IMG/VR virus record: IMGVR_UViG_3300033978_000437
Length of the DNA stretch: 64,000 nucleotides
DNA from: a virus
Strand: one strand, 5' to 3'
Shown: piece after piece, positions 24,144 to 36,092 of the stretch
How the letters are laid out: each line of letters starts with the position of its first letter
Position numbering within the stretch: position 1 is the first letter of the stretch
Made by a program: the position numbers and the translations under genes
The notes under the pieces: model-generated
Databases searched by the model: none
Told to the model about the DNA's origin: nothing
The model's input: only the letters and a program-made list of their open reading frames with translations

Positions 24144-24485
24144 TCACCAAGTGAACTGGGTACCTAGGTAAGGCTTACGAACTTGAACTGCGGTTACTTG
24201 ATTTTGTTGCCTCTGAAACTTTAACACTTTGCTGACTTCAACTATACTTCGCCATAAGAAAGCTATTTCCTTTTGTTGAAGCACTTGTGAAGTTCCAAAA
24301 GTTATTGCAAAGAAGTCAGGAACAAACAGCGTATAACCAATAGGAAATTTGTTATCAGTTAAGTGTTTACAAAACTGCTTTAACTCCTTATCCCAGTTAC
24401 GAAGTATGTCCGTAATCTTAGCGTGGTACCCTAGCCTATTGTTTACAGCCTTATCATCTTGTAGTAAGGCAATGTAATTATTCAT
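24144..24485 (-). CDS. hypothetical protein
   Basis: ORF track, 113 aa. Confidence 0.6.
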   Translation of the reverse strand: MNNYIALLQDDKAVNNRLGYHAKITDILRNWDKELKQFCKHLTDNKFPIGYTLFVPDFFAITFGTSQVLQQKEIAFLWRSIVEVSKVLKFQRQQNQVTAVQVRKPYLGTQFTW

Positions 24486-24790
24486 TTTTTATTTCTTTCT
24501 CTTTCTAGATTTTGATTGCTGCAGAAGTGCCATGACCAATGAAACCCCTGTTCAATGTGGCACCCATGCGTTTCAGCTATCTTGTCTAGTTTAGCCCATT
24601 CCTTCTTTCCAATACCGCTATTCAGTAAGTGATACAGTGTTCCTTCCGCAACAAAGACCACTTCTCCAAATGCCATTTCTCCTTCTTTTTCTTTCCATTG
24701 TTCAGCTGTGTAAGTTTTTGTGTCGATGTACTTTGACACAAACTTATCCACAGCTTTAAACAGTTTTTCTTTAGTTTTAGTTTTAAGCAT
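24482..24790 (-). CDS. hypothetical protein
   Basis: ORF track, 102 aa; ATGA overlap with the downstream gene. Confidence 0.65.
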   Translation of the reverse strand: MLKTKTKEKLFKAVDKFVSKYIDTKTYTAEQWKEKEGEMAFGEVVFVAEGTLYHLLNSGIGKKEWAKLDKIAETHGCHIEQGFHWSWHFCSNQNLERERNKK

Positions 24791-24801
24791 TGTTGTTATC
24801 C

Positions 24802-25032
24802 TTAGATAGATTGTAGATAAATGCCTCTGTTCGTCTTTAACCGGTCTTTGGCTTCAACCTTAGCAGCAGCTACCGAGCTGCAGTTAAATTGATAGCCATT
24901 GATAATCAAGGTAACTTCCGCCTTGTCATCACTTTCTAAAATAGTTGAAACTGTACCATTGGGGTAACAGCGTCTGTAAACAGCATGCTTAACCCCATTG
25001 GTCTTTCCTCGTTCCACTTGCCATCTTTTCAT
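24802..25032 (-). CDS. hypothetical protein
   Basis: ORF track, 76 aa; GGAG RBS. Confidence 0.6.
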   Translation of the reverse strand: MKRWQVERGKTNGVKHAVYRRCYPNGTVSTILESDDKAEVTLIINGYQFNCSSVAAAKVEAKDRLKTNRGIYLQSI

Positions 25033-25041
25033 TCATTTCTC

Positions 25042-25239
25042 CTATGCATCTACTTCATACCCTTCAAACCAATTTCCAAGCTTTGCCGTCCTAGCTTTCG
25101 CAAGCGGTAGGACAGCCGTCTTAGAACTTGTCTCAGGGTCGGAACAATGCTTCTGGGCTTGCTCAAGGGTTAAACCTCGATGAAGCGTCCTTGGTCTTCC
25201 TTTAAAGTAAAACCTTATAATTTTGTATCGTAGTTCCAT
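25042..25239 (-). CDS. conserved small phage protein
   Basis: YKIIRFYF...GLTLEQAQKHCSDPETSS...WFEGY pattern. Confidence 0.65.
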   Translation of the reverse strand: MELRYKIIRFYFKGRPRTLHRGLTLEQAQKHCSDPETSSKTAVLPLAKARTAKLGNWFEGYEVDA

Positions 25240-25275
25240 AGGTTAACTTTCTTTAAAATAAGGGTGTAAGTTACA

Positions 25276-25305
25276 ACACAAGTTCACAAACTTGTGACTT
25301 TGTGG
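25276..25305. repeat. imperfect inverted repeat, CACAAG-family hairpin 1
   Basis: ACACAAGTTCACAAACTTGTGACTTTGTGG; related to 26001 and 26791. Confidence 0.55.
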
Positions 25306-25332
25306 TATTCTAATGTAATGATAGAAGAAAAG

Positions 25333-25545
25333 CTAAGAACGGCTATCGCTACTCTCCTCCACTTCTACATCACAATCTAACCCATACGCGCTCGAGATGG
25401 GGCCATCGTCTTCTTTTCCATTTACATACACATCCACCGCCACTCCTTCATCAGTTTTGCGGATTCGCACTGCAAATCCCTTTACAGTAATCCAAGCACC
25501 ATCATCCAGTAAAATGTAATCAGGACCTTCGCCATCAATTTCCAT
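25333..25545 (-). CDS. hypothetical protein
   Basis: ORF track, 70 aa; AGGAGA RBS. Confidence 0.65.
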   Translation of the reverse strand: MEIDGEGPDYILLDDGAWITVKGFAVRIRKTDEGVAVDVYVNGKEDDGPISSAYGLDCDVEVEESSDSRS

Positions 25546-25572
25546 TGGTTGTTCTCCTTGTTAAGTTTAAAG

Positions 25573-25646
25573 CTAAAGCCAGTGCCGGATCTCAAGGGGC
25601 GACACACATCGAAAAAGAGTCGCCTTCTTCTTAGCACTGGCCTTAG
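25573..25646 (-). other. nested-stem structured intergenic element
   Basis: outer stem GCCAGTGC/GCACTGGC, inner stem GGCGAC/GTCGCC, directly after the stop of 25643..25933. Confidence 0.45.
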
Positions 25647-25933
25647 TCTGCCTTTGATACTAAAAGCTCACTGTTGTGAACTTGATCTGAGATTTGGGCT
25701 GCGGGTAATCCCGTAGCTTCTGAAATTAAATTGATTATCTTCTGCTCAATAATGTTATCTAACTTATTCCTATGATTCATTACTATATCTATTATTAGCT
25801 TGAGCATTGGTACCGCTTGTATCTTTATTGCTTGGTTCTCCCAAGTACCTTCTTCTTTATTACTCCAAGCCGTAATAAAAGCCATAAATTTTTTATGGTT
25901 TTTACTTATTTCATTTAATTCATTTTGATTCAT
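25643..25933 (-). CDS. hypothetical protein
   Basis: ORF track, 96 aa; AAGGA RBS. Confidence 0.6.
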   Translation of the reverse strand: MNQNELNEISKNHKKFMAFITAWSNKEEGTWENQAIKIQAVPMLKLIIDIVMNHRNKLDNIIEQKIINLISEATGLPAAQISDQVHNSELLVSKAD

Positions 25934-25999
25934 TACATTCCTTTCGTTAGAAAGAAAGACAACTAGTTATGGTTGTCTTTCTCTATACTGTAGTAGAAT

Positions 26000-26031
26000 A
26001 ACACAAGCTCACAACTTTGTGAGTTTGTGTT
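26000..26031. repeat. inverted repeat, CACAAG-family hairpin 2
   Basis: AACACAAGCTCACA-ACTT-TGTGAGTTTGTGTT. Confidence 0.6.
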
Positions 26032-26072
26032 GTGATTTATGATACGTATTGTAGGACGATTTATTGCGATGT

Positions 26073-26435
26073 CTACATTTTTGAAATTGTTTTTTCGACT
26101 AATTTAAGAATTTGATGAAGCAGCTTTATACCTACTTGAATATCGGAGTTAGGTTGAGTTTGAACTTTCTTACTAACTACTGCTAACTTAGGTATACTTG
26201 CTTTCATTCTCCATGCAGGTCTAGTTTTACCCGCTCTAATTGTAGACATATGCCTTTCAATCAACCCCGCTTGAACTAGCTGGCTTCGGTATATCAATAC
26301 CGTTGCCTTGGTTAGCCCTGTTGCTTTGACAATGTCTATGTCGCAAACACCGGCATTTCTGGCTGTTTGTTGTGCGATATACAAACAAATCTTTTGTTTG
26401 CCTTTGTTGAAACCTTTCGTGTAATCTTTACGCAT
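26073..26435 (-). CDS. winged-HTH DNA-binding protein
   Basis: DIVKATGLTKATVLIYRSQLVQAGLIER followed by a beta-wing. Confidence 0.6.
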   Translation of the reverse strand: MRKDYTKGFNKGKQKICLYIAQQTARNAGVCDIDIVKATGLTKATVLIYRSQLVQAGLIERHMSTIRAGKTRPAWRMKASIPKLAVVSKKVQTQPNSDIQVGIKLLHQILKLVEKTISKM

Positions 26436-26449
26436 AAAGCGTTCCTTTC

Positions 26450-26764
26450 TTATTTTTTGTTAAGACAGTGAGGTATTTGCATTTCATTTAATAGTTTGGT
26501 ACAGCGTGCTATAGTAACTTCTCCCAGGTTTTGAATGCTTTCTAAATCTTCAACAGTTAATTTAGCTAAATCTCCTATAGTTAATAACCCATAGTTTTCT
26601 AGCGTGTTAGCTACACGGACGGGCAGCCCAACATCTGACAACGATATAGTCTGACATTGTTCAATTCTGTCTTTTTCTTTTTCGTCGTCAGACATGAACT
26701 GCACCCAGAGTTGATCTGGAGGTTTTCTTCGTTTACGTTTGACTGGTCCGCCATGTAGTTCCAT
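26450..26764 (-). CDS. RNA polymerase alpha C-terminal domain-like protein
   Basis: LSDVGLPVRVANTLENYGLLTIGDLAKLTVEDLESIQNLGEVTIARC matches I..L.LSVR..N.L....I..I.DL......L..I.NLG.KS..EI. Confidence 0.82.
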   Translation of the reverse strand: MELHGGPVKRKRRKPPDQLWVQFMSDDEKEKDRIEQCQTISLSDVGLPVRVANTLENYGLLTIGDLAKLTVEDLESIQNLGEVTIARCTKLLNEMQIPHCLNKK

Positions 26765-26790
26765 TTAGCACCTATGAGTTAAAAAACATT

Positions 26791-26827
26791 TAGCCACAAG
26801 CTTAGCAATGAACTAAGCTTGTGGCTA
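26791..26827 (-). terminator. intrinsic terminator, CACAAG-family hairpin 3
   Basis: TAGCCACAAGCTTAG-7 nt-CTAAGCTTGTGGCTA 15-bp perfect stem, T-tract on the minus strand. Confidence 0.7.
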
Positions 26828-26855
26828 TCTTTTGTACCTAAATTATGTAATTTAT

Positions 26856-27260
26856 TTAAGTTAAACCATCTACGATTTGTTCTCGTAGTGTTTCTTCTAC
26901 AGTTTCTGCCAGCTCTTCAATACCTTCGGCTTCCATCATTGCTTTAACGATATCATCTACTAACTCTGGCTGTGCTTCGTCATCGTTGTATCTAGGATCT
27001 TCAAAGAACGATTCCATCACTTTTTGGTTTCGAGCGTAAATGCTTTCTGCCACTGGTGCATTTATTTGATCCATAGTTGCTTCAATAGTATCAAAGGTGC
27101 TACTCCAATCCATCTTGTCATCTATAAAATTACATAACCATTCCCAGTCTTTATCATCTTCTTTGTCAAATAGATCTGCTTCCCAATGTGCAAAGATGAT
27201 GTTTTTAACACCTCGTTTCTTTACTTCCATTAGCGATTTAATTGCATCATCGATTTTCAT
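26856..27260 (-). CDS. hypothetical protein
   Basis: ORF track, 134 aa; AAGGAG RBS. Confidence 0.65.
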   Translation of the reverse strand: MKIDDAIKSLMEVKKRGVKNIIFAHWEADLFDKEDDKDWEWLCNFIDDKMDWSSTFDTIEATMDQINAPVAESIYARNQKVMESFFEDPRYNDDEAQPELVDDIVKAMMEAEGIEELAETVEETLREQIVDGLT

Positions 27261-27651
27261 TTAGTTCTCCTTTAAGTTGTTTATGTTTAGCGCAAGTTTT
27301 GCATACCTTGGCCGAGTCGGAAAAAGTGCAAAACTTGCACATTATTTTGTTACACAGTTCGCAACGTTGTTTAGGCATGTGCTTATATAAGGTGAGCTCA
27401 TCTAGTTTAGAAAATCGGATAAGACATGCATCGCAATATTCTCCTTCTAGTCTAGGGAAAAGCAGTCTAATAGTGTTTTCCCTATCAAGAACAAAAGAAG
27501 CTCCATTAATAGTAATGGAGCAAACTGTACTAAAATTGCGAAAACCCGGAGATCCGTTAATCTCCATTGCGAGATGGATAGCACCATCACTTTCCATGAC
27601 AAGAAGATTGACCCCATTACTTAATGTCATTTTGTGAATACCTTTTGTCAT
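27247..27651 (-). CDS. hypothetical protein with C-terminal Cys-rich region
   Basis: CDAC, CELC, CKFC, CKTC. Confidence 0.6.
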   Translation of the reverse strand: MTKGIHKMTLSNGVNLLVMESDGAIHLAMEINGSPGFRNFSTVCSITINGASFVLDRENTIRLLFPRLEGEYCDACLIRFSKLDELTLYKHMPKQRCELCNKIMCKFCTFSDSAKVCKTCAKHKQLKGELNENR

Positions 27652-27713
27652 AATTGACTCCAGTATTTAGTAAACCTCCTTGTAGTAGCTAAATTTTTAA
27701 AGTTAAAGTTTAG

Positions 27714-27929
27714 TTACACACTGGCTAACAAATTAGCTACTTCTCTTGGTGTTTCCTTTACCCAGAGAAGTCCATTAGGATAAGTAGGGCCCGACACTTC
27801 GATGCAAGTAATTGCGGTGGAGTACTTTGACTTTTCTTCCCAGAACGCTTTTACAAACGCAGGGTTGACCCAGAATTCTTGACTACCACCACCGCCGGAC
27901 CCTAGATTAAAGAATTGAACTGCTTTCAC
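27714..27929 (-). CDS. hypothetical protein
   Basis: ORF track, 71 aa. Confidence 0.55.
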   Translation of the reverse strand: MKAVQFFNLGSGGGGSQEFWVNPAFVKAFWEEKSKYSTAITCIEVSGPTYPNGLLWVKETPREVANLLASV

Positions 27930-27931
27930 AA

Positions 27932-28129
27932 TTATACTCCTTCAATTTTTTCTTTTTCTTTAAAATCTTTTTTAGCTTGTTCAACTACTACGCTACGAAT
28001 GTAGTCTCCCCAACGCATGCCTTTGTTGGCAGCAGCAAAAGCTATGAGGGCAAAATGCTCTCGAGGAAACAAAACTTTTACTTGTCTATCCGAAGTTGTA
28101 GTTATTTTGTCTGCTTTAATCTTTTTCAT
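27932..28129 (-). CDS. ribbon-helix-helix protein, paralog A
   Basis: VKVLFPREHFALIAFAAANKGMRWGDYIRSVV; close paralog of 28135..28347. Confidence 0.65.
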   Translation of the reverse strand: MKKIKADKITTTSDRQVKVLFPREHFALIAFAAANKGMRWGDYIRSVVVEQAKKDFKEKEKIEGV

Positions 28130-28134
28130 GTTAC

Positions 28135-28347
28135 TTACTCCATTTCTTTGCTAATGATTAATTGTGCTTCTTTGAAATCTTTTTTGGCTTGTTCAAGTAC
28201 TACATTACGTATGTAGTCTCCCCAACGTATTTTTTTGTTAGCAGCAGCAAAAACTATAAGAGCATACTGCACATGCGAAAAAATAAGTTTTATTGGTTTC
28301 TCTTGGTTTTTATCTGGTTTAGCTTTAACCGATTCGTTTTTCTTCAT
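28135..28347 (-). CDS. ribbon-helix-helix protein, paralog B
   Basis: IKLIFSHVQYALIVFAAANKKIRWGDYIRNVV. Confidence 0.65.
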   Translation of the reverse strand: MKKNESVKAKPDKNQEKPIKLIFSHVQYALIVFAAANKKIRWGDYIRNVVLEQAKKDFKEAQLIISKEME

Positions 28348-28352
28348 ACTGA

Positions 28353-28589
28353 TTATCCTTTTAATGTAAGTAAATTAATTGAAGGTAAGTCTGCAGTTGC
28401 TGTAAACACACTTTCAAAATCTGGGCATAGCACTACACACTCATCTGTAATGCCGAGACATCTTCCATCCTTTAGATGGACTACATCTACCATGACACCG
28501 CCTCCTGTGTCTTCGCTGGTTATTTTTTCTATGTAAGTCAATTTGTTCCTCCTAAGTAAGTTGGTTAAAAATGTCATCAAAAATACCAT
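28353..28589 (-). CDS. hypothetical protein
   Basis: ORF track, 78 aa. Confidence 0.55.
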   Translation of the reverse strand: MVFLMTFLTNLLRRNKLTYIEKITSEDTGGGVMVDVVHLKDGRCLGITDECVVLCPDFESVFTATADLPSINLLTLKG

Positions 28590-28893
28590 CAGGCCCTTCC
28601 ATAGCTCTTATAGCATTAGATTGGCCTCCGCTCATTTCGTTCTCGTAATTTTCCCAGTTGTAGTCTGACCTACCCCCAAAGAACGATATGTTCTGATTTA
28701 CAATTTTGCCTGAGCGTAGCTCGCGGTAGCATTCAAGGCATAAATAGTGGTAACGAGACGTTCTTAATATTCTGACATCGGTTACAATGTCTTTACAACA
28801 TGAGCACTCAAAATTATCACTAGAGCGAAGCACAGGTTTAACATCCATCTTAGGCTGCTCAACTACCACTCTATCCTTTTGTGCGGCGGTCAT
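28552..28893 (-). CDS. hypothetical protein with CSCC/CLEC Zn motif
   Basis: ORF track, 113 aa. Confidence 0.55.
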   Translation of the reverse strand: MTAAQKDRVVVEQPKMDVKPVLRSSDNFECSCCKDIVTDVRILRTSRYHYLCLECYRELRSGKIVNQNISFFGGRSDYNWENYENEMSGGQSNAIRAMEGPDGIFDDIFNQLT

Positions 28894-28896
28894 GAT

Positions 28897-29181
28897 TCAT
28901 TCTCCGTGGTACTGAAACAAAACAGCGTTACAATGACAATGCACCGCACCGATGGTCATTCCAGTGTCATGACAGTGATGCAAGTGTACAGGCCATCTAA
29001 AGAAGCCTAAAGGAAATAATTCGATGTCTATTTGTTTTTCCATTACTTTGCGAGCAGCAGCTTTATCAAGTGGCTCTTCGCAATAACTGCATTTTCCTTT
29101 TTGCTTGCTGATATACTCTTCACGCACTAATTTACGCTCTTGCCACGTAAGTTCTGCGTAGTCAACTGGGAGCTTCATCAT
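28897..29181 (-). CDS. endonuclease VII-like (His-Me finger) protein
   Basis: KQKGKCSYC...HLHHCHDTG...VHCHCN resembles Q.G.C.IC...VDHCH.TG...LLC..CN. Confidence 0.6.
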   Translation of the reverse strand: MMKLPVDYAELTWQERKLVREEYISKQKGKCSYCEEPLDKAAARKVMEKQIDIELFPLGFFRWPVHLHHCHDTGMTIGAVHCHCNAVLFQYHGE

Positions 29182-29192
29182 TATTCTCCTTG

Positions 29193-29474
29193 TTAGAGTT
29201 GTGAGTCAGCTACTTCGCTGCCTCCTAAGCTTCTTAGTTTGTCTTTCCAAACTCTGCCGTTGTATGACATATACCCTACAAGTTTGTTGTTTAGAAAGAG
29301 GGGGCAATCTCCCCAATTACCCCCGCCTAGACCTTCAAGCTCTTGCCATTCTTGGACCTTTTCCCTTAGTTCTTTAATGGCATCGGCTTGCAGCTCTGTG
29401 TTTGCAATTTCTTCTTCTGGGTTTTGACCGTGGTCAATATTCCCATAAGCCGTAGCTTTAAGCTTCAACCGCAT
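29193..29474 (-). CDS. hypothetical protein
   Basis: ORF track, 93 aa. Confidence 0.6.
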   Translation of the reverse strand: MRLKLKATAYGNIDHGQNPEEEIANTELQADAIKELREKVQEWQELEGLGGGNWGDCPLFLNNKLVGYMSYNGRVWKDKLRSLGGSEVADSQL

Positions 29475-29766
29475 TTTCAGTCCTTTCTTTAATTTGTTTA
29501 AAGATGTTCATATCGCAATCCAAGAATACTCCTTTGCAATTGTGTCCAGTGATAATGATGCACCTCATGTGCGGGGCTACGGAGTTACCCGCTGCATGCT
29601 CATGAATCATGCTGAAGCTAACTGGGAAGATAAAATCTTCTGGAAGTTCTGCTAGCAGCTCTGGGCTAAGTATTCGGTTGTACCCTCTACTGATTGCCAA
29701 CAAGTTGGCTTTTAGTAGTTCGGGTTTAGTAAAGAAAGGTATGTGACTGTACGACTTAGTTTCCAT
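29458..29766 (-). CDS. hypothetical protein
   Basis: ORF track 29458..29844; start moved to METKSY (29766) with AAGGAG RBS. Confidence 0.6.
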   Translation of the reverse strand: METKSYSHIPFFTKPELLKANLLAISRGYNRILSPELLAELPEDFIFPVSFSMIHEHAAGNSVAPHMRCIIITGHNCKGVFLDCDMNIFKQIKERTENAVEA

Positions 29767-29779
29767 TAGAATCTCCTTG

Positions 29780-29968
29780 TTAAAATTGTTGTGACCAATT
29801 TTCAGTTCCAGGTCTACCGATAGACCATAAATCTGAATACGCATTGTTTACAAATCTGGATTTTGACATTGCATTGAGATTACTCAACGACCAAATCCTA
29901 TTTCTATTCCAAGCTCTAGCAGGGAGCTTAGCATCCCACCCACTTACCATATTTAGTCTTCTTATCAT
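29780..29968 (-). CDS. array peptide 17 (62 aa, MIRRLNMVSGW...)
   Basis: ORF track; ATGA overlap with unit 16. Confidence 0.7.
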   Translation of the reverse strand: MIRRLNMVSGWDAKLPARAWNRNRIWSLSNLNAMSKSRFVNNAYSDLWSIGRPGTENWSQQF

Positions 29969-30150
29969 CTGCTACGCCTCCAAACTTGAGACTGTTGCAG
30001 CATTCTACTCCAACTAAAATTCCACATACATCTATTAACCCAACTCTGCTGCTTCATTGTTGATTTAAACCAGCTTTTACTGTTTGGGCTTGTAAGTCTT
30101 TGTCCGGTCCAGTTTTGAGAAAGTGCTTGTGTTTTAATTGTCATTCTCAT
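29965..30150 (-). CDS. array peptide 16 (61 aa, MRMTIKTQ...VWRRSR)
   Basis: internal ATG at 30150 overlapping the TGA of unit 15. Confidence 0.65.
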   Translation of the reverse strand: MRMTIKTQALSQNWTGQRLTSPNSKSWFKSTMKQQSWVNRCMWNFSWSRMLQQSQVWRRSR

Positions 30151-30347
30151 TTTAACCAATTAAGTCCTTTCCAATAAGTAGTCCAACAATTAGACCAACA
30201 TTCTGATCTAGTTAGATGTCCTATAGCTACAAAACCTTTCCAACTTACGGACCAAGCATGAGCATTTTGAGAAGAATAACTCCAAGTTATAGCTTTTTTA
30301 AAAGAGCTAGATTGATCCGTTGGAAATGTATTGACTCTTCTTATCAT
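30147..30347 (-). CDS. array peptide 15 (66 aa, MIRRVNTF...)
   Basis: internal ATG at 30347; ATGA overlap. Confidence 0.7.
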   Translation of the reverse strand: MIRRVNTFPTDQSSSFKKAITWSYSSQNAHAWSVSWKGFVAIGHLTRSECWSNCWTTYWKGLNWLK

Positions 30348-30496
30348 TGGTAGCTTGCCCCCCGAGAAATAGTCCAACTTTTAGATCCCGATCTAAAGTT
30401 AGTCCAGCCCCAAGACCAGCCATTCCTAGGGGTCTTAGAAAGACAACTAGACTTAGTCCAATGTAAAGAGAAACCATTTATATTTTTTCTTATCAT
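30344..30496 (-). CDS. array peptide 14 (50 aa, MIRKNINGFSLHWTKSSCLSKTPRNGWSWGWTNFRSGSKSWTISRGASYQ)
   Basis: hand-translated; below the ORF-track cutoff; TAATG overlap with unit 13. Confidence 0.7.
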   Translation of the reverse strand: MIRKNINGFSLHWTKSSCLSKTPRNGWSWGWTNFRSGSKSWTISRGASYQ

Positions 30497-30711
30497 TACC
30501 TCCTCCTTCTAGGTGACGGCCAGAGTGCAACCCCATAGTCAGACCATAGGTGACGATGCGCCCAGACTTTAGAGAACGCAGGACCAGAACCCCAGCCTCC
30601 AAAGAATGGAACACCAGGCCCTTTGGCAAGTGTTCCACCCCATGAAGACCAGACATAACTATTATCCCAAGATCCGGTCCTAGCCTGTATTCTGGCTATT
30701 TTTCTTATCAT
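30496..30711 (-). CDS. array peptide 13 (71 aa, MIRKIARI...)
   Basis: ORF track; ATGA overlap with unit 12. Confidence 0.7.
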   Translation of the reverse strand: MIRKIARIQARTGSWDNSYVWSSWGGTLAKGPGVPFFGGWGSGPAFSKVWAHRHLWSDYGVALWPSPRRRR

Positions 30712-30920
30712 CGCTTAGTCCTCCAAAGCAAAGAGCGATGAGCGTGACAACCATTTAAAAACCAATGAGACCAACTGTACTCAAGTTGGTGTGAGTCCGT
30801 GGCAATCTCAGACCACATCGATTCACGGCTCCAAGACTCAGAATTAGTCCTTTCGTTTTTAGGTCCGAGTTTATTTGTTACCCAAGACTTAGATCCGGGC
30901 CATGTTGCTTTCCATATCAT
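30708..30920 (-). CDS. array peptide 12 (70 aa, MIWKATW...)
   Basis: ORF track; ATGA overlap. Confidence 0.7.
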   Translation of the reverse strand: MIWKATWPGSKSWVTNKLGPKNERTNSESWSRESMWSEIATDSHQLEYSWSHWFLNGCHAHRSLLWRTKR

Positions 30921-31096
30921 CTTCGGGTTCTCCAGCTATTTGAACGAAACCAAAGATATTCAGAAAAGATGCGGCACAAACCCCAACAGCCAGCAAAACT
31001 GTTTAAAGATGTTGACCAATGACTCAAATTAGTCCTAGACCTTTGTAATGCTTCAGTCCAGTTATTAGAGTTAGCAGTTATTCTATGCATTTTCAT
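30917..31096 (-). CDS. array peptide 11 (59 aa, MKMHRIT...SWRTRR)
   Basis: internal ATG at 31096; ATGA overlap. Confidence 0.65.
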   Translation of the reverse strand: MKMHRITANSNNWTEALQRSRTNLSHWSTSLNSFAGCWGLCRIFSEYLWFRSNSWRTRR

Positions 31097-31278
31097 TGAG
31101 CTGTTCTCCAAGAGTAGGAACGGTTGTACCATATGCCACTACCTACATCGCTGTGGGTGCGCTGGCGAAACCAGTTACCTGATTTTAAATCGTAATGATC
31201 CCATTGGTTGAACCATGAACATTTCTGTTCTCTGTTCCAAACAACAGATATGATTACTACATTTGCTTTTCTTATCAT
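31093..31278 (-). CDS. array peptide 10 (61 aa, MIRKANV...)
   Basis: internal ATG at 31278; ATGA overlap. Confidence 0.7.
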   Translation of the reverse strand: MIRKANVVIISVVWNREQKCSWFNQWDHYDLKSGNWFRQRTHSDVGSGIWYNRSYSWRTAQ

Positions 31279-31451
31279 CGAGAGCCCCTTCTCCAATCTC
31301 TAGACTTTTCCCAAGTATTAGTCCAAGACCCAGAATCATAATTAGACTTAAACCAAGACCAAGACTCACGCCATTCTTCTGCCCAATCCCAAGATCTAGC
31401 ACAACCCCGAGAAAAAGTCGTAGCAGTAGTACATTTTGTTTTTCTTATCAT
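31275..31451 (-). CDS. array peptide 9 (58 aa, MIRKTKC...)
   Basis: internal ATG at 31451; ATGA overlap. Confidence 0.7.
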   Translation of the reverse strand: MIRKTKCTTATTFSRGCARSWDWAEEWRESWSWFKSNYDSGSWTNTWEKSRDWRRGSR

Positions 31452-31615
31452 TTGTCGGTGCTCCAAGAATAAGACCAAGGCTCAGGCCAAGACCCAGATC
31501 CAGCCCAACGCATAGACTCTGACCAAGATTCAGACCAAGGCCCAGACCAAGACCAAGACCTAGTCCAAGACACAGACCAAGACCAAGAACTAGCCTCATT
31601 TGTTTTTCTTATCAT
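31448..31615 (-). CDS. array peptide 8 (55 aa, MIRKTNEASSWSWSVSWTRSWSWSG...)
   Basis: AGGAGATAT-ATG; purest (Ser-Trp)n unit. Confidence 0.75.
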   Translation of the reverse strand: MIRKTNEASSWSWSVSWTRSWSWSGPWSESWSESMRWAGSGSWPEPWSYSWSTDK

Positions 31616-31794
31616 ATATCTCCTTTCCAAGAGGAAGACTCTATAAAGTCCTCAGTCCATGCTCCACCAATACGCCATTCTTCTGACCAAAGATTAGACC
31701 ATGTAGGCCAAGGTCTATACTTAGCCAAACACCAAGACATGTTCGTGTCCAAAGACCAAGAGAAAGATTGGCCAAAAGCTTTTCTTATTATCAT
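31612..31794 (-). CDS. array peptide 7 (60 aa, MIIRKAF...)
   Basis: internal ATG at 31794; ATGA overlap. Confidence 0.7.
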   Translation of the reverse strand: MIIRKAFGQSFSWSLDTNMSWCLAKYRPWPTWSNLWSEEWRIGGAWTEDFIESSSWKGDI

Positions 31795-31967
31795 CGGAAA
31801 GAACTCCAAGAATTAGATCTAATCTTTGGAAAGACCCACAGGTAAGACCAAGATTTTCCAAAAGGCGTAGCGGTAGATCTGTGCCAATGTCGTGTAAAGC
31901 AAGTTCCCCAAAAAGACAAGTCTGACCAATCTCTTGATCTGGGAATTACTAATGTTTTTCTTATCAT
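31791..31967 (-). CDS. array peptide 6 (58 aa, MIRKTLVIPRSRDWSDLSFW...SWSSFR)
   Basis: hand-translated; below the ORF-track cutoff; GGAG RBS; 1-nt gap after the unit 5 stop. Confidence 0.7.
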   Translation of the reverse strand: MIRKTLVIPRSRDWSDLSFWGTCFTRHWHRSTATPFGKSWSYLWVFPKIRSNSWSSFR

Positions 31968-31968
31968 G

Positions 31969-32151
31969 TTATCTCCATGCTATTCGCAGAATAGATAGGT
32001 TCCAGTTTCGTGCTCCCCATGTAATGCTGTAATGCCAGCGTCCGGGCCAGCCTAGAGATCCGGAACCGGACAACAAAGACGCAGACCAGTACACAGACCC
32101 AGACCAGTTACGAGATAGTTTTTCAGGAGCTCTCGCTGTTCGTTTGATCAT
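31969..32151 (-). CDS. array peptide 5 (60 aa, MIKRTAR...)
   Basis: internal ATG at 32151; ATGA overlap. Confidence 0.7.
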   Translation of the reverse strand: MIKRTARAPEKLSRNWSGSVYWSASLLSGSGSLGWPGRWHYSITWGARNWNLSILRIAWR

Positions 32152-32348
32152 ATGTGGTGACTCCAAGATCTAGGAATGGAACCGACTACGAAGTTAGACC
32201 GAAGTCTGTTTTGAGGCCAGCACCCAGTGTAATTTTGACTAAAATGCCAGTTCCAACTCCAAGTCTTGGGAAAAGGTTTAAGACGAGACCAAGAATAACC
32301 TTGAGACCAAGCTTCAGTTCGAGAGTATAGCAATGTTTTTCTTATCAT
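32148..32348 (-). CDS. array peptide 4 (66 aa, MIRKTLL...)
   Basis: internal ATG at 32348; ATGA overlap. Confidence 0.7.
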   Translation of the reverse strand: MIRKTLLYSRTEAWSQGYSWSRLKPFPKTWSWNWHFSQNYTGCWPQNRLRSNFVVGSIPRSWSHHI

Positions 32349-32554
32349 GCGTTTGTACTCCACGACTCGGACATAGGTATGTTTATATCCATCGCCACCC
32401 AAGCCCAACAATGAGACTCAAAATCAGTCCAAGACTCTGAATGTGCCTCAAAATTTGAATTTATACTATATCCCCAATTATCTAACCAAGATGATGATAT
32501 ATGTGCACTAACGTTCCAAGAGTTTGAACTCCTCCACGTTATTTTTCTTATCAT
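32345..32554 (-). CDS. array peptide 3 (69 aa, MIRKITW...)
   Basis: ORF track; ATGA overlap. Confidence 0.7.
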   Translation of the reverse strand: MIRKITWRSSNSWNVSAHISSSWLDNWGYSINSNFEAHSESWTDFESHCWAWVAMDINIPMSESWSTNA

Positions 32555-32760
32555 AAGTTATCCCTCCAATGCCAAGACTCGTGTCTATTTTTAACCCAAG
32601 CACCAGATCTACCCTGAGACTCGGGCCAAGAATAAGATTTAGCATACTGATGAGACCAAGCCCCACCCCAGCCACCTTGAGCTACAGTTGGCTTCCACTC
32701 AGATGTATCCCAATTCCCAGACCAAGACCCAGAACTTGCAAAATCAACACTTCTTATCAT
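32551..32760 (-). CDS. array peptide 2 (69 aa, MIRSVDF...)
   Basis: internal ATG at 32760; ATGA overlap. Confidence 0.7.
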   Translation of the reverse strand: MIRSVDFASSGSWSGNWDTSEWKPTVAQGGWGGAWSHQYAKSYSWPESQGRSGAWVKNRHESWHWRDNL

Positions 32761-32939
32761 CGGTATTCCCTCCATGCTGTGGTGGAAATAAATTTAGTGT
32801 GAGACCAACTACTTGACCAAGGTCTACCTAATCTATCAGAGGAAAAAACCATACCTTCTGTTCTGTAAGTGCCGCAAGTCCAACTATTGGTCCAGAGCAA
32901 AGCTCTGGACCATGGAGGAATAGATTTTATTATTCTCAT
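32757..32939 (-). CDS. array peptide 1 (60 aa, MRIIKSIPPW...)
   Basis: GGGGAG RBS, 14 bp after the stop of the Sm-like gene. Confidence 0.7.
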   Translation of the reverse strand: MRIIKSIPPWSRALLWTNSWTCGTYRTEGMVFSSDRLGRPWSSSWSHTKFISTTAWREYR

Positions 32940-32953
32940 ATGCACTCCCCTTG

Positions 32954-33271
32954 TTATGCATCCAAGGGAGCGAAGCACCAGCGTGGCTGATATATGATTT
33001 CCACTGCACCTAGGGAAATCACAACAGAGGAGCCGATTGGATCCTCGGTGTTAGGTTGTTCTTGACTAGAAGCACCCGAGGTCTCCACTGCCCTAGCTTG
33101 GGCCAACACCAAGCAGTCATCAGCTACATGGCTGAGGATGCCACGGTAGTTGTAGCGGGCACAAAGCACCGCAACGGGTTGACCCAAGAATTGCTGAGCA
33201 ATACTGGCCATGTTGCCAGCAAGGGTGCCATCGATATTTACCAAAGTTACTTTGTTCTTTACTTTTGCCAT
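32954..33271 (-). CDS. Sm/LSm-fold protein
   Basis: Sm1-like QFLGQPVAVLCARYNYRGILSHVADDCLVLAQARAV and Sm2-like SSVVISLGAVEII. Confidence 0.65.
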   Translation of the reverse strand: MAKVKNKVTLVNIDGTLAGNMASIAQQFLGQPVAVLCARYNYRGILSHVADDCLVLAQARAVETSGASSQEQPNTEDPIGSSVVISLGAVEIIYQPRWCFAPLDA

Positions 33272-33306
33272 AATACTAATTCCTTAATATAAGATTGATT
33301 CCAACG

Positions 33307-33334
33307 AAAAAGGGAGCAGACATTCTGCTCCCTT
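33307..33334 (-). terminator. intrinsic terminator upstream of the Sm-like gene
   Basis: AAGGGAGCAGA-CAT-TCTGCTCCCTT with a T-tract on the minus strand. Confidence 0.7.
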
Positions 33335-33368
33335 AGGTAAACTAAATAACATTAATACCGACATCGAC

Positions 33369-33695
33369 CTAGTCTGCAACTTTGCGTTCACGCTCTGCGT
33401 TGAGCGGATCATACTCTCTTTGTCTAGTGACACAGACCCAGCTGTTAGCTGGCAAGCGGATGTCCGAATGCTCGTCGTGTCCGACTACTGTTTCTTCTTT
33501 AGAAAAGAGATAGATATCTCCTTTCACATTTACATAACTTTCGACCTCGGGCCCAGTCCTGATGGCATGACTGTGACCAGTCACTTCTCCGAATGCAAGA
33601 ATCCTAGATTCGTGCTTTTTCATATCTTTAAGATCCTTTGGCTTAGCCACGGTCTTAAAGAAAATATCACCCTGACGACTTTGAAAATTCCGCAT
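33369..33695 (-). CDS. conserved phage protein (His-rich, putative metal binding)
   Basis: RQGD...GEVTGHSH...HDEH...RQREY...KVAD, a family often found next to DUF6745. Confidence 0.65.
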   Translation of the reverse strand: MRNFQSRQGDIFFKTVAKPKDLKDMKKHESRILAFGEVTGHSHAIRTGPEVESYVNVKGDIYLFSKEETVVGHDEHSDIRLPANSWVCVTRQREYDPLNAERERKVAD

Positions 33696-33714
33696 GATAG
33701 CTCCTTCGTAAAAG

Positions 33715-34341
33715 TTAAGATTCCTGTGAAGGCTGGTACTTGTCAGCCTTCATGTAATTCGTCCATGCTACTGCTTCCAAACATGTCTTCATGGTTGGCG
33801 GTACGCATAAGAAGTAGTTCTTAAATGTACCATCGGGTTCTGCAGTCGAGTTTACTACCTTGACATACAAGGTAGGCTCGGTGAAAACCCTTGGGATTTC
33901 AAACAGAATCCTTTCTCTTCCAAACTGATCCACATCCTTGTGGATAATTTTAGTAGTAGGTAGGGCCATGATTTTGTCTAACCCTATGACCTTCATCCCT
34001 ACATATCTTACCTCCGTATTTGGGTTTCGCAAGACTTCTTCCAACAAAACCGTTTCTGGCTTGGTAAAGAAGTGCGGAGGAATGCGAACTCCTTCGTAAT
34101 AATACAGGATGCTGCCGAACTTGTCGGCATCCATTCCATGTTGTTGACCATTCTTGTACCAGATGATTCTGGTAGGGGAGATGTAGGCTGGACCATTGTC
34201 ACAATGGAGCCTACCATCCTCGTTCAAGATTCGTTTAAGTGGCCCAAACCCAAACTCTCCATTAAAGAATTTGAGTCTGGAAGTCCACGCTTCATATCCT
34301 TGGTTTTTCATTCCAACTCCTTTTAGGTATGAATGCTCCAC
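33715..34341 (-). CDS. DUF6745-like protein
   Basis: LHCDNGPA, YYEGVRIP, N.EVR, VKVVNST.EPDG...YFLCVPP...C.EAVAWT. Confidence 0.6.
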   Translation of the reverse strand: MEHSYLKGVGMKNQGYEAWTSRLKFFNGEFGFGPLKRILNEDGRLHCDNGPAYISPTRIIWYKNGQQHGMDADKFGSILYYYEGVRIPPHFFTKPETVLLEEVLRNPNTEVRYVGMKVIGLDKIMALPTTKIIHKDVDQFGRERILFEIPRVFTEPTLYVKVVNSTAEPDGTFKNYFLCVPPTMKTCLEAVAWTNYMKADKYQPSQES

Positions 34342-35036
34342 AGTGCGTTTGTCTCAAGAGTCACGCTGAAGGTTTCACCAGACCCTGGTCCATGATAGAT
34401 GAGCCCACCATTGTACCCATAGGTATAATACTGGCTATATCTGTATGCGTTTTTAAATGCATACTCGGTCAACACTTGAGAGTACCCTTCATTCAAGTGA
34501 ACTTTCTCGGTGATCTTGAGTTCTTCAACAACCTTCTGATGAGGGTTAATAACTCCTGCTTGGGCATGCTTGTTAAAGCAATCCCAATAGATTTCCGATC
34601 TAAGCGGGAAGTATGCAGAGAAGCTGAAACTGTGTAGACAACCATCGTCATGTAGGATGACTTTCTGCTTAGGTACACCAATAGTCACTGGGTCTTTATC
34701 TTCTGGACCAAACAACACTTGCAGCTCTATCCAGCTTGGATCGGGCAACTCTGCGTATGGTGAAGTGCTACTGTGGGTGAGATGTGCCATTTTAGTAAAG
34801 AAGCTTTCGGCTAACTTCTCTGCAGTGTCGGTTTTCCCCGCATGGTACATTGCAAGGATATACCCTGCGATAGAACCTAAGCGAGTTTCTCCATGCTGCG
34901 TGAAGTACGCCTTGCCTTTCCAGTGTTCTGCGAGTCCATGCAGATACCTATTTAATTTGGTGTTAAGTATTTCTAAGCAGTCTTGGCCATAAGTTTGCAA
35001 TCCTAATTCACTTACTGGGCTTTTTAAATCACTCAT
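34323..35036 (-). CDS. hypothetical protein (237 aa)
   Basis: ORF track; C-terminal YNGGLIYHG. Confidence 0.65.
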   Translation of the reverse strand: MSDLKSPVSELGLQTYGQDCLEILNTKLNRYLHGLAEHWKGKAYFTQHGETRLGSIAGYILAMYHAGKTDTAEKLAESFFTKMAHLTHSSTSPYAELPDPSWIELQVLFGPEDKDPVTIGVPKQKVILHDDGCLHSFSFSAYFPLRSEIYWDCFNKHAQAGVINPHQKVVEELKITEKVHLNEGYSQVLTEYAFKNAYRYSQYYTYGYNGGLIYHGPGSGETFSVTLETNALWSIHT

Positions 35037-35346
35037 CGTTATTCTCCTTTTTGAAAGGGGTTATTTCTGTAAGATGTTTTTCATAATATTTTTCATCTTC
35101 TTCATCATCATCTTCTGGTTCATTGTGATCTTTAAACTGCATTAGCTTTTCCATCACATGCTCTTGTCTCGCCTCCCAACGCTCTATGTTACAGCCTTCC
35201 TGTGGGTTGCTTTCAAGAAAAGCTCGCATCCTATCCACATAAAATCTAATGGATGTTCTAATAAAATCTCTTTCCCAGTGTAGGAGCAAATTGGGATTGT
35301 CATAAACTGGCTTGCTGTTATCACTCATCATCTTCTTCCTCCTCAT
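35029..35346 (-). CDS. hypothetical protein
   Basis: ORF track, 105 aa. Confidence 0.55.
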   Translation of the reverse strand: MRRKKMMSDNSKPVYDNPNLLLHWERDFIRTSIRFYVDRMRAFLESNPQEGCNIERWEARQEHVMEKLMQFKDHNEPEDDDEEDEKYYEKHLTEITPFKKENNDE

Positions 35347-35731
35347 TTTCGTTTTCGTTCTCAGTCTCTATTTCGATAGAAACTTCTGGGTCTGGATCAA
35401 GGTCTACTCTTTCCATCATCCACGATGAAACAGATGCTTTCATCGTTTCTAGGTTGTAGGTAACATCGTCACCATAGTCGTTGCCGTCACCGGCACCGCT
35501 GTACTGGTAAGCATCAAATGCCCATGTCTCCACATCTGTTTCTAGTTTACTCACCCTCTGTTTTCTCTTAACAATCTTAACTAGATCGTCTGTCTTGGGT
35601 GCCACTAAAACTACATACAGATTCCCTTCGTCATTTCCTCCACGAAACTCAAGTTCTATGGAACTTATTCCTAGTTCTTTTGCTTCATCATAAAGCTTTT
35701 TGGGTAGCGGAATAGGACTCAAATCTGACAT
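35321..35731 (-). CDS. DUF6878-like protein
   Basis: IELEFRGGNDEG motif and acidic tail. Confidence 0.45.
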   Translation of the reverse strand: MSDLSPIPLPKKLYDEAKELGISSIELEFRGGNDEGNLYVVLVAPKTDDLVKIVKRKQRVSKLETDVETWAFDAYQYSGAGDGNDYGDDVTYNLETMKASVSSWMMERVDLDPDPEVSIEIETENENENEEEEDDE

Positions 35732-35744
35732 AGCTTCTCCTTAG

Positions 35745-36092
35745 TTAGTTATCGCAAGTTTCATGTTTGTTAGTTGCAAATTGTGCTATGACATCAACAT
35801 AGCCTGCGTTTGGATCTACATCGTTATGCCAAACGGCATTAACGAACCTCAGACCGCAAGAGTGTTCAAACCAATATTTAACATGAGCAGACAAGCTTTC
35901 GCCTGAAGAAGCTTCTACTCTGTTATCGTAGTTGTTGCGAAAGAAATCTGCTTTTACCTCGTCCATAGCAAGGTAAATCTTATGGCAGCCATCCCATGCT
36001 GCTAAAATTGCGTTTTTGCAATATTCCGGAAGGGCATCATAGCCTTCATCTATGTCGTCAGAGTTGTGCACTCCATACTCATTTTGATCCAT
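35745..36092 (-). CDS. hypothetical protein
   Basis: ORF track, 115 aa; AAGGAG RBS. Confidence 0.65.
   Translation of the reverse strand: MDQNEYGVHNSDDIDEGYDALPEYCKNAILAAWDGCHKIYLAMDEVKADFFRNNYDNRVEASSGESLSAHVKYWFEHSCGLRFVNAVWHNDVDPNAGYVDVIAQFATNKHETCDN

Follow-up and report, generated by a model that had tools for sequence, protein, structure and literature searches.

A chain of tryptophan- and serine-rich micro-genes beside a predicted Sm-fold gene in an uncultured lake phage

The 64,000-nucleotide stretch of viral DNA analysed here (the window; IMG/VR record IMGVR_UViG_3300033978_000437) holds an array of 17 minus-strand open reading frames (ORFs) of 50–71 codons, which tile 3.16 kb at 32939–29780 and begin 14 nt past the stop of a gene for a 105-aa Sm-like protein. 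We consider it highly probable that these ORFs constitute a real, translated gene family, that their bodies originate from a TCTTGG hexamer, and that a coupling cassette chains them together. The micro-genes make up a gene class for which we found no description in the literature, and, as a preliminary description of this DNA had supposed, no named family or system fits them.

Layout of the array and its junction cassette

The layout given in the preliminary description (17 back-to-back ORFs of 50–71 aa in about 3.2 kb, 14 nt downstream of the Sm-like gene, with eleven common starts and six variants) proved correct in every particular. Fourteen of the 16 junctions are 4-nt ATGA overlaps, one is a 1-nt overlap and one a 1-nt gap; every unit start is preceded by a (T)GGAG motif, which is embedded in the “S-W-[R/K/S]” codons at the C-terminal end of the unit before it. 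Eleven of the 17 units start with ATGATAAGA, and the remaining six begin MRIIK, MIKRT, MIIRK, MKMHR, MIWKA and MRMTI. Across the 64-kb window, the minus strand has 12 copies of ATGATAAGA, all but one inside the array, and the plus strand has none. The sole copy outside the array, reading downward from 54735 on the minus strand, opens a 33-codon ORF for a hydrophobic peptide (MIRTIKRIERLIVLGAIAV...) that is not a Ser/Trp unit; no other Trp-rich small ORF was found in the window.

When 93 distinct junctions are compared, information peaks at GGAG, 9–13 nt before the ATG, and at ATGATAAGAAAA. The resulting junction cassette spans ~25 nt (..TCT TGG AG.. N6-9 ATGA TAA GAA AA) and carries the last Trp of the previous unit, a Shine–Dalgarno (SD) site, the stop, the next start and an A-rich initiation region; the leader RNA of the units reads AUGAUAAGAAAAA. 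The shared M-I-R-K codons are fixed as ATA/AGA/AAA despite genome usage of 26%/20%/54% for these codons, which argues for constraint at the nucleotide level, and no conserved peptide extends past residue 4 across this array. The “MIRK leader” thus appears to be conserved as nucleotides, namely as a start cassette that combines the stop/start overlap with the A-rich initiation region, and not as a peptide. Expression as a polyprotein by −1 frameshifting at the junctions was considered and rejected: there is no conserved slippery heptamer, and every junction has its own SD site and ATG.

Coding status, hexamer origin and turnover of the units

Seven related contigs were found via the Sm-like gene, and all seven carry such arrays; flanking DNA of the two closest, L053 and L054, is ~85–87% identical to that of the window. 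Two further frames, (GL)n and (PR/DQ)n, are partly open in the array owing to the TCTTGG hexamer, and open frames alone are therefore no proof of coding. Our verdict rests instead on the frame-specific ratio of nonsynonymous to synonymous divergence (pN/pS), which comes to 0.44 for the annotated frame when 28 pairs of orthologous units are taken together, versus 1.08 and 0.94 for the two alternatives; in single genome-to-genome comparisons, the annotated frame gives 0.38 (Fisher p 8e-11) and 0.59 (p 4e-5). The (GL)n and (PR/DQ)n frames, with pN/pS about 1, were rejected as coding. On this comparative sequence evidence, we take the array ORFs to be real coding genes expressed by translational coupling, and 5–10 times less constrained than their neighbours, for which pN/pS is 0.01–0.14 with one exception at 0.18–0.47. 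Constraint varies by unit: units 6, 7, 10 and 13 lie at 0.05–0.39, and units 2, 4, 9 and 17 near 1. The synonymous divergence (pS) of retained orthologous units, ~0.20, is below that of most flanking genes (0.21–0.57; the C5 methylase, at 0.21–0.24, is similar), and may reflect either a bias from choosing pairs of at least 60% identity or a hexamer or RNA constraint on synonymous sites. The units, all on the minus strand and each starting at its higher coordinate, are as follows.

32757..32939, minus: unit 1, MRIIK..., 60 aa, net charge +6, GGGGAG SD site
32551..32760, minus: unit 2, MIRS..., 69 aa; pN/pS about 1
32345..32554, minus: unit 3, MIRK..., 69 aa, net charge −4; found in L054 but without a counterpart at >=60% identity in L053
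32148..32348, minus: unit 4, MIRK..., 66 aa; pN/pS near 1
31969..32151, minus: unit 5, MIKRT..., 60 aa; pN/pS 0.29–0.67
31791..31967, minus: unit 6, MIRK..., 58 aa; pN/pS 0.24–0.28
31612..31794, minus: unit 7, MIIRK..., 60 aa; pN/pS 0.24–0.28
31448..31615, minus: unit 8, 55 aa with 11 Trp; near-pure (TCT TGG)n core at 31472–31588
31275..31451, minus: unit 9, 58 aa; pN/pS ~1.25
31093..31278, minus: unit 10, 61 aa; the most constrained unit, pN/pS 0.05–0.39
30917..31096, minus: unit 11, MKMHR..., 59 aa
30708..30920, minus: unit 12, MIWKA..., 70 aa; found in L054 but without a counterpart at >=60% identity in L053
30496..30711, minus: unit 13, 71 aa, net charge +9; pN/pS 0.12–0.19
30344..30496, minus: unit 14, 50 aa; no counterpart at >=60% identity in L053 or L054
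30147..30347, minus: unit 15, MIRRVNTF..., 66 aa; clustered-difference patch at 30238–30307 in an independent lake sample
29965..30150, minus: unit 16, MRMTI..., 61 aa, net charge +11; no counterpart at >=60% identity in L053 or L054
29780..29968, minus: unit 17, MIRR..., 62 aa, last in the chain; pN/pS near 1

The peptides are extreme in composition, with 11.3% Trp and 16.6% Ser compared to 1.6% and 5.9% in the long ORFs of the window; Trp residues have Ser neighbours and hold to a two-residue register. Their net charge runs from −4 to +11, with 13 of the 17 units at +4 or more and four neutral or acidic. Paralogous bodies have diverged to a median identity of 0.29, compared with 0.27 for composition-matched shuffles, so that the earlier statement that the units are Trp/Ser-rich with divergent bodies stands; what paralogues have in common is limited to start, tail, composition and Trp register. 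The repeat itself remains visible: TCTTGG occurs 30 times on the array sense strand, of 54 copies in the whole window, and Tandem Repeats Finder reports an array of period 6/12/30 in unit 8. The TCT bias among Ser codons (57% in the array vs. 26% in the genome), the repeat tract of unit 8, the even spacing of Trp residues (81 of 102 Trp–Trp spacings even, 21 odd) and the shuffle-like paralogues together indicate that the unit bodies descend from TCTTGG slippage, which would give (Ser-Trp)n, between fixed junction cassettes. The bodies range from near-pure repeat (unit 8) to diverged and constrained (units 10 and 13).

The units had also been called hypervariable, which is true between paralogues but not between orthologues: orthologous array blocks are 75–93% identical against a genome background of ~85%, and a lake contig from another study carries all 17 units intact at 98.2% identity, without indels; its transitions run both ways (A>G 12, T>C 14, C>T 11, G>A 6). 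There is accordingly no sign of the active diversification of peptides that had been envisaged. Frames of the array are intact over ~15% DNA divergence and in sequencing runs dated 2020–2024. Arrays in L053 and L054 are colinear with that of the window and differ from it by whole-unit insertions and deletions, and a further contig (L059) contains five near-identical (GSWS)n units, which points to recent duplication there. Turnover thus proceeds by whole-unit gain and loss under relaxed purifying selection, without a sign of hypermutation.

Two local observations concern single units. Within the otherwise 98.2% identical lake contig, unit 15 shows ~20 differences inside 70 nt (30238–30307), a patch that looks like replacement by recombination or gene conversion. 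Around unit 8 (31436–31683), the word depth of the (CCAAGA)n core is several hundred to several thousand times that of its flanks in three of four lake-water runs and ~3 times in the fourth; the excess stems from many short unrelated contigs. Hexamer tracts like that of unit 8 seem to be very abundant in these lake communities and to break assemblies, and micro-genes like unit 8 are presumably abundant there as well.

Searches with the products returned little beyond the arrays themselves. The 17 units gave no family match in Pfam, NCBIfam, PHROGs or PADLOC apart from one chance match (E 0.08), and they contain neither a signal peptide nor a membrane segment, with no hydrophobic 15-mer above 1.13. 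Of 1.84 billion proteins searched with a profile of 70 units, only 12 representatives reached E<=1e-3, and 11 of these were similar micro-ORFs. The profile hits sit on contigs shorter than 2 kb, and their contexts are uninformative. Homologues of unit 13 were confined to its own 90% cluster (26 contigs), with no usable match in the ESM Atlas, and the search with unit 8 gave no candidates, perhaps owing to low complexity or uncalled genes. Scanning IMG/VR DNA for two ATGATAAGAAR words 140–170 nt apart gave 31 loci, in which the only arrays were those of the seven contigs already found via the Sm-like gene; the others were chance matches. Unit 10 was modelled by AlphaFold2 as a helix plus a three-stranded sheet (predicted local distance difference test, pLDDT, 67 overall and 74–83 in the core); Foldseek found nothing for this model at E<=1e-3, and a wide VIA structure search gave a best Z of 4.3, within noise, to T7 Gp1.2 (alpha-beta3, like a double-stranded RNA-binding domain).

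The Sm-like gene and the flanking genes

Three features border the array.

32954..33271, minus: 105-aa protein with predicted Sm/LSm fold; core gene in a clade of uncultured lake phages
33300..33334, minus: intrinsic-terminator-like hairpin with an 11-bp stem and a T run; ends the upstream unit
29458..29766, minus: conserved ordinary gene (METKSY...) at the distal edge, which likewise follows the array in L053 and L054

The 105-aa protein is predicted to have an Sm/LSm fold, and the preliminary assignment is supported by structure modelling. Its AlphaFold2 model (pLDDT 84; predicted template modelling score 0.76) has a helix at residues 21–28 and strands at 32–37, 41–49, 53–63, 75–86 (in two pieces) and 90–94; the predicted arrangement, with the helix at the N-terminal end and then five antiparallel strands in a strongly bent sheet, is that of an Sm fold. 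Foldseek gave 19 matches to this model in the Protein Data Bank (PDB) at E<=1e-3; among the matches listed, the top ones are Sm/LSm chains, with template modelling scores by target length of 0.58–0.81, and the best superimpose with a root-mean-square deviation of 2–3 Å. At the sequence level, Pfam yields only a sub-threshold hit to DUF6897 (E 2.8e-4; 20.9 bits, cut-off 23.9), the Pfam LSM family and Hfq profiles (Sm1/Sm2 motifs) are unmatched, and a profile built from 33 homologues matches no PDB sequence at E<=1. We found at least 159 homologues of ~105 aa, all metagenomic and strongly conserved (pN/pS 0.01–0.05 for the gene), and no match among cultured phage proteins.

The terminator hairpin noted earlier is present at 33310–33334 (−18.6 kcal/mol, z −3.8). 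The interval from this terminator to the Sm start showed no sigma-70-like promoter, and no terminator was found between the Sm-like gene and unit 1. Rfam had no match within the Sm-like gene or the array, and a single chance small-RNA match (E 0.048) upstream at 34185–34334; no structured RNA signal was detected in the array, no tRNA by ARAGORN, and no DNA match to the array in cultured phages. Upstream of the Sm-like gene, at 33369–34341 (minus), lie a DUF6745 gene and an “RQGD...GH.H” gene (phrog_27831), which accompany the Sm-like gene in many relatives (L016, L069–L075), on one side or the other, and make up a conserved set of three small genes with it.

The window comes from an IMG/VR viral contig of 81 kb with a CheckV completeness of 38%; related contigs reach 157–181 kb. 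Its genes include a DnaB-like helicase, SbcC- and Mre11/SbcD-type genes, a large terminase (TerL) and a C5 methylase. TerL is only ~30% identical to that of the nearest cultured phage, and therefore no host can be inferred. A 1163-aa protein at 8772–12263 (minus) combines a uracil-DNA-glycosylase-superfamily domain with a 3′–5′ exonuclease and a family-A DNA polymerase. At 26450–26764 (minus), a stand-alone 104-aa protein matches the C-terminal domain (CTD) of the RNA polymerase alpha subunit (Pfam PF03118, E 2.9e-11); it is possibly a phage decoy or modulator of host transcription.

Link to the array, possible functions and known systems

Co-occurrence of arrays downstream of Sm-like homologues, which the preliminary description had proposed as a check, is borne out as an enrichment but not as a rule: a Ser/Trp-rich small ORF lies within 600 nt downstream of the Sm-like gene in 23 of 71 metagenome loci, compared with 6 of 69 within 800 nt upstream (p 7e-4), and only 19 of 61 distinct Sm-like proteins have an adjacent family member. 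On the Sm tree, adjacency occurs in the clade of the window, in some members of a second large clade, and on the two longest and deepest branches, a distribution that needs at least 8 changes; single units beside other Sm-like homologues begin MI[LI]K.N..SF..CW. Array-free loci have the Sm-like gene followed by DUF6745 or other genes. The link between the Sm-like gene and the array thus appears to be real but not obligate. Predicting a complex of two Sm-like copies with unit 1 gave a score of 0.00, which weighs neither for nor against binding. Two contigs, L055 (3587–6911) and L057 (1411–3846), encode Sm-like proteins 88–89% identical to ours and have MIRK/Ser-Trp units also upstream of the Sm-like gene; in L055, units sit between the DUF6745 and phrog_27831 genes, as if single units inserted between conserved genes.

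We propose that the locus is one operon, in which the terminator is followed by the Sm-fold gene and then by 17 micro-genes translated by termination–reinitiation. The products would be co-expressed accessory proteins whose make-up, Trp/Arg “stickers” and Ser/Gly “spacers”, could serve to bind nucleic acid or host proteins as extended or beta-rich chains; many copies would provide dose and variety, and the peptides may act with the neighbouring Sm-like protein as trans-encoded low-complexity tails. We favour binding because of the composition, the charge, the co-transcription, and the adjacency that recurs across deep Sm branches. As a whole package, the coupled micro-protein operon together with the proposed binding function stands, in our judgement, a little short of even; the function taken separately (Trp/Arg peptides that bind nucleic acid or protein, possibly with the Sm-like protein) is tentative and on balance doubtful. 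A more far-reaching version, which we regard as clearly unlikely, would have an Sm-like ring and Ser/Trp/Arg micro-proteins form a phage ribonucleoprotein system with interchangeable trans-encoded low-complexity tails, condensing RNA and protein or remodelling host or phage mRNA. Equally speculative within that ribonucleoprotein system is the idea that aromatic and arginine residues are its stickers and that its tails are continually born from hexamer stutter between translation cassettes.

Several observations weigh against a functional operon tied to the Sm-like protein. As many as 42 of the 61 distinct Sm-like homologues have no family member within 600 nt, and several whole Sm clades lack an adjacent unit; in L055 and L057, units lie on both sides of the Sm-like gene and between other genes; and in L064, L067 and L071, whose units share a longer start of the type MILK.N.[FY]S, the arrays are 3–6 kb away from the Sm-like gene. 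The Sm tie may thus reflect only a shared variable island, and the dedicated module of Sm-like gene plus array that had originally been put forward is not supported as an obligate one: in most lineages Sm-like homologues stand without the array, an outcome that the preliminary description had itself listed as counting against its proposal. Roughly one unit in three evolves at a pN/pS close to 1 and may lack a function, and the fold modelled for unit 10 derives from a 4-row alignment and has no structural match above Z 4.3.

The main rival, which we consider somewhat unlikely, is an Sm-independent arsenal of small anti-defence or host-takeover inhibitors, each blocking a different host protein and adjacent to the Sm-like gene only through a common variable accessory region. 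It accounts for the fast evolution and the relaxed, unit-specific constraint, for the gain and loss of units between phages 85% identical in DNA, for the units interspersed with other small genes in L055 and L057, for the Sm-like homologues that mostly lack an array, and for takeover-type neighbours (the RNA polymerase alpha-CTD-like protein, an endonuclease VII-like protein and the C5 methylase). However, the inhibitor loci known so far are made up of unrelated folds, whereas here 17 peptides have one extreme composition and derive from one hexamer; the units have no match above noise to PADLOC models or solved inhibitor structures; and Sm adjacency recurs on distant branches of the Sm tree. 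It is decidedly unlikely, in our view, that the ORFs are translated but largely functionless, with self-propagating hexamer slippage and a portable start/stop cassette yielding harmless peptides that are tolerated: shuffle-like paralogue bodies, several units at pN/pS about 1, the near-pure microsatellite of unit 8 and the great abundance of similar hexamer runs in the same lake metagenomes would be expected on that account, but the low pN/pS of units 6, 7, 10 and 13 (0.05–0.39), frames that stay intact over ~15% DNA divergence and in the 2020–2024 runs, SD sites and couplings kept at 93 junctions, and a content of 11% Trp, the costliest residue, are not.

Membrane-active Trp/Arg peptides, acting on the host inner membrane for instance in lysis timing or superinfection exclusion, are very unlikely. 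Although the cationic Trp-rich composition (net charge up to +11) recalls Trp/Arg antimicrobial peptides, the units have no hydrophobic or amphipathic segment and no signal peptide, are very rich in Ser/Thr/Asn, and include four that are neutral or acidic; they sit within a run of small genes, with no lysis or structural gene identified among the neighbours scanned. Nor does it seem probable that RNA or DNA is the functional entity, with UCUUGG or A-rich sites for a binding protein such as the Sm-like ring and ORFs that are incidental. The leader is conserved at the nucleotide level, 30 of the 54 hexamers of the window lie on the array sense strand, and AAGAAAAAC in the leader reads as three A-R-N triplets, which we take to be of the type bound by Hfq; but frame-specific purifying selection (0.44 vs. 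about 1), the SD site and ATGA at nearly every junction, and the lack of an Rfam family or structured RNA signal make an element of this kind highly improbable. The remaining reading, a library of precursors of ribosomally synthesized and post-translationally modified peptides (RiPPs) or of peptides diversified by a diversity-generating retroelement (DGR), shares with the array only the outward layout of a common start and variable bodies; it is largely refuted, and we find it barely credible. The RiPP-like leader and core suggested earlier fares poorly: the shared start amounts to four codons fixed as nucleotides, and Pfam found no maturation enzyme, protease or transporter among 13 neighbouring ORFs (24144–36092) and 14 genes elsewhere in the window. 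Neither a radical-SAM domain (other enzyme classes were not searched genome-wide) nor a reverse transcriptase (RVT_1) was found in this contig and two relatives 76–84% complete (G000, G001 and G002); and, against a DGR, substitutions show no adenine specificity, the array stays stable from sample to sample, and the divergence of orthologous blocks is in line with the genome background.

Should the peptides prove functional, they would be a class of phage protein not described before, with an extreme content of 11% tryptophan, the rarest residue and the most expensive to make. The architecture itself, up to ~20 genes chained by one reusable stop/start/Shine–Dalgarno cassette, is unusual as well. 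The recurrent, non-obligate neighbourhood with an Sm-fold gene, in abundant lake phages without a cultured member, hints at unexplored RNA biology. Our literature searches returned no description of the array or gene class; the nearest paper concerns LSm-like T4 proteins (PMC12152347). According to its abstract, GoF, MotB.1 and Frd.2 of T4-type phages are small early proteins with an LSm-like fold seen by structure prediction only and a suspected role with RNA (PMC12152347). The 105-aa Sm-like protein is likewise a small phage protein with a fold known from prediction; no sequence relation to the T4-type proteins was found, and the abstract of PMC12152347 mentions no micro-protein array. The Sm-like family described here, unlike those proteins, matched no cultured phage.

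Eukaryotic and archaeal Sm/LSm proteins, among them SmD1, SmD3, SmB and LSm4 with their low-complexity Arg-Gly (RG) tails, resemble the present locus in that a predicted Sm fold is genetically tied to a basic low-complexity dipeptide-repeat polypeptide. They differ in several respects: here the repeat peptides are encoded by genes of their own, are rich in Ser/Trp instead of Arg/Gly, number up to ~20 per genome and are linked to the Sm-like gene in a non-obligate way, and the 105-aa protein has no Pfam LSM sequence match. Were the ribonucleoprotein version of our proposal true, the locus would correspond, in a virus and with the parts in split genes, to the Sm proteins that carry RG tails. The hyperplastic internal-protein (IP) locus of T4 resembles the array in that it groups small, often basic, fast-turnover proteins with a short conserved N-terminus; the IP leader is a capsid-targeting peptide of roughly 10 residues that is cut by the prohead protease, and the IP bodies are unrelated folded proteins, whereas the units of the array share only four codons, fixed as nucleotides, and have one repeat-derived composition in all bodies. 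Repeat-born genes, for example those of antifreeze proteins, arise when slippage multiplies a short unit with several open frames and the resulting coding sequence then diverges. The array resembles a natural series of such gene birth from a microsatellite, from near-pure (TCTTGG)n through drifting to constrained units, and would make de novo gene origin in viruses directly testable; in contrast to the antifreeze genes, many rounds of it seem to have taken place within one viral operon, between fixed start/stop cassettes.

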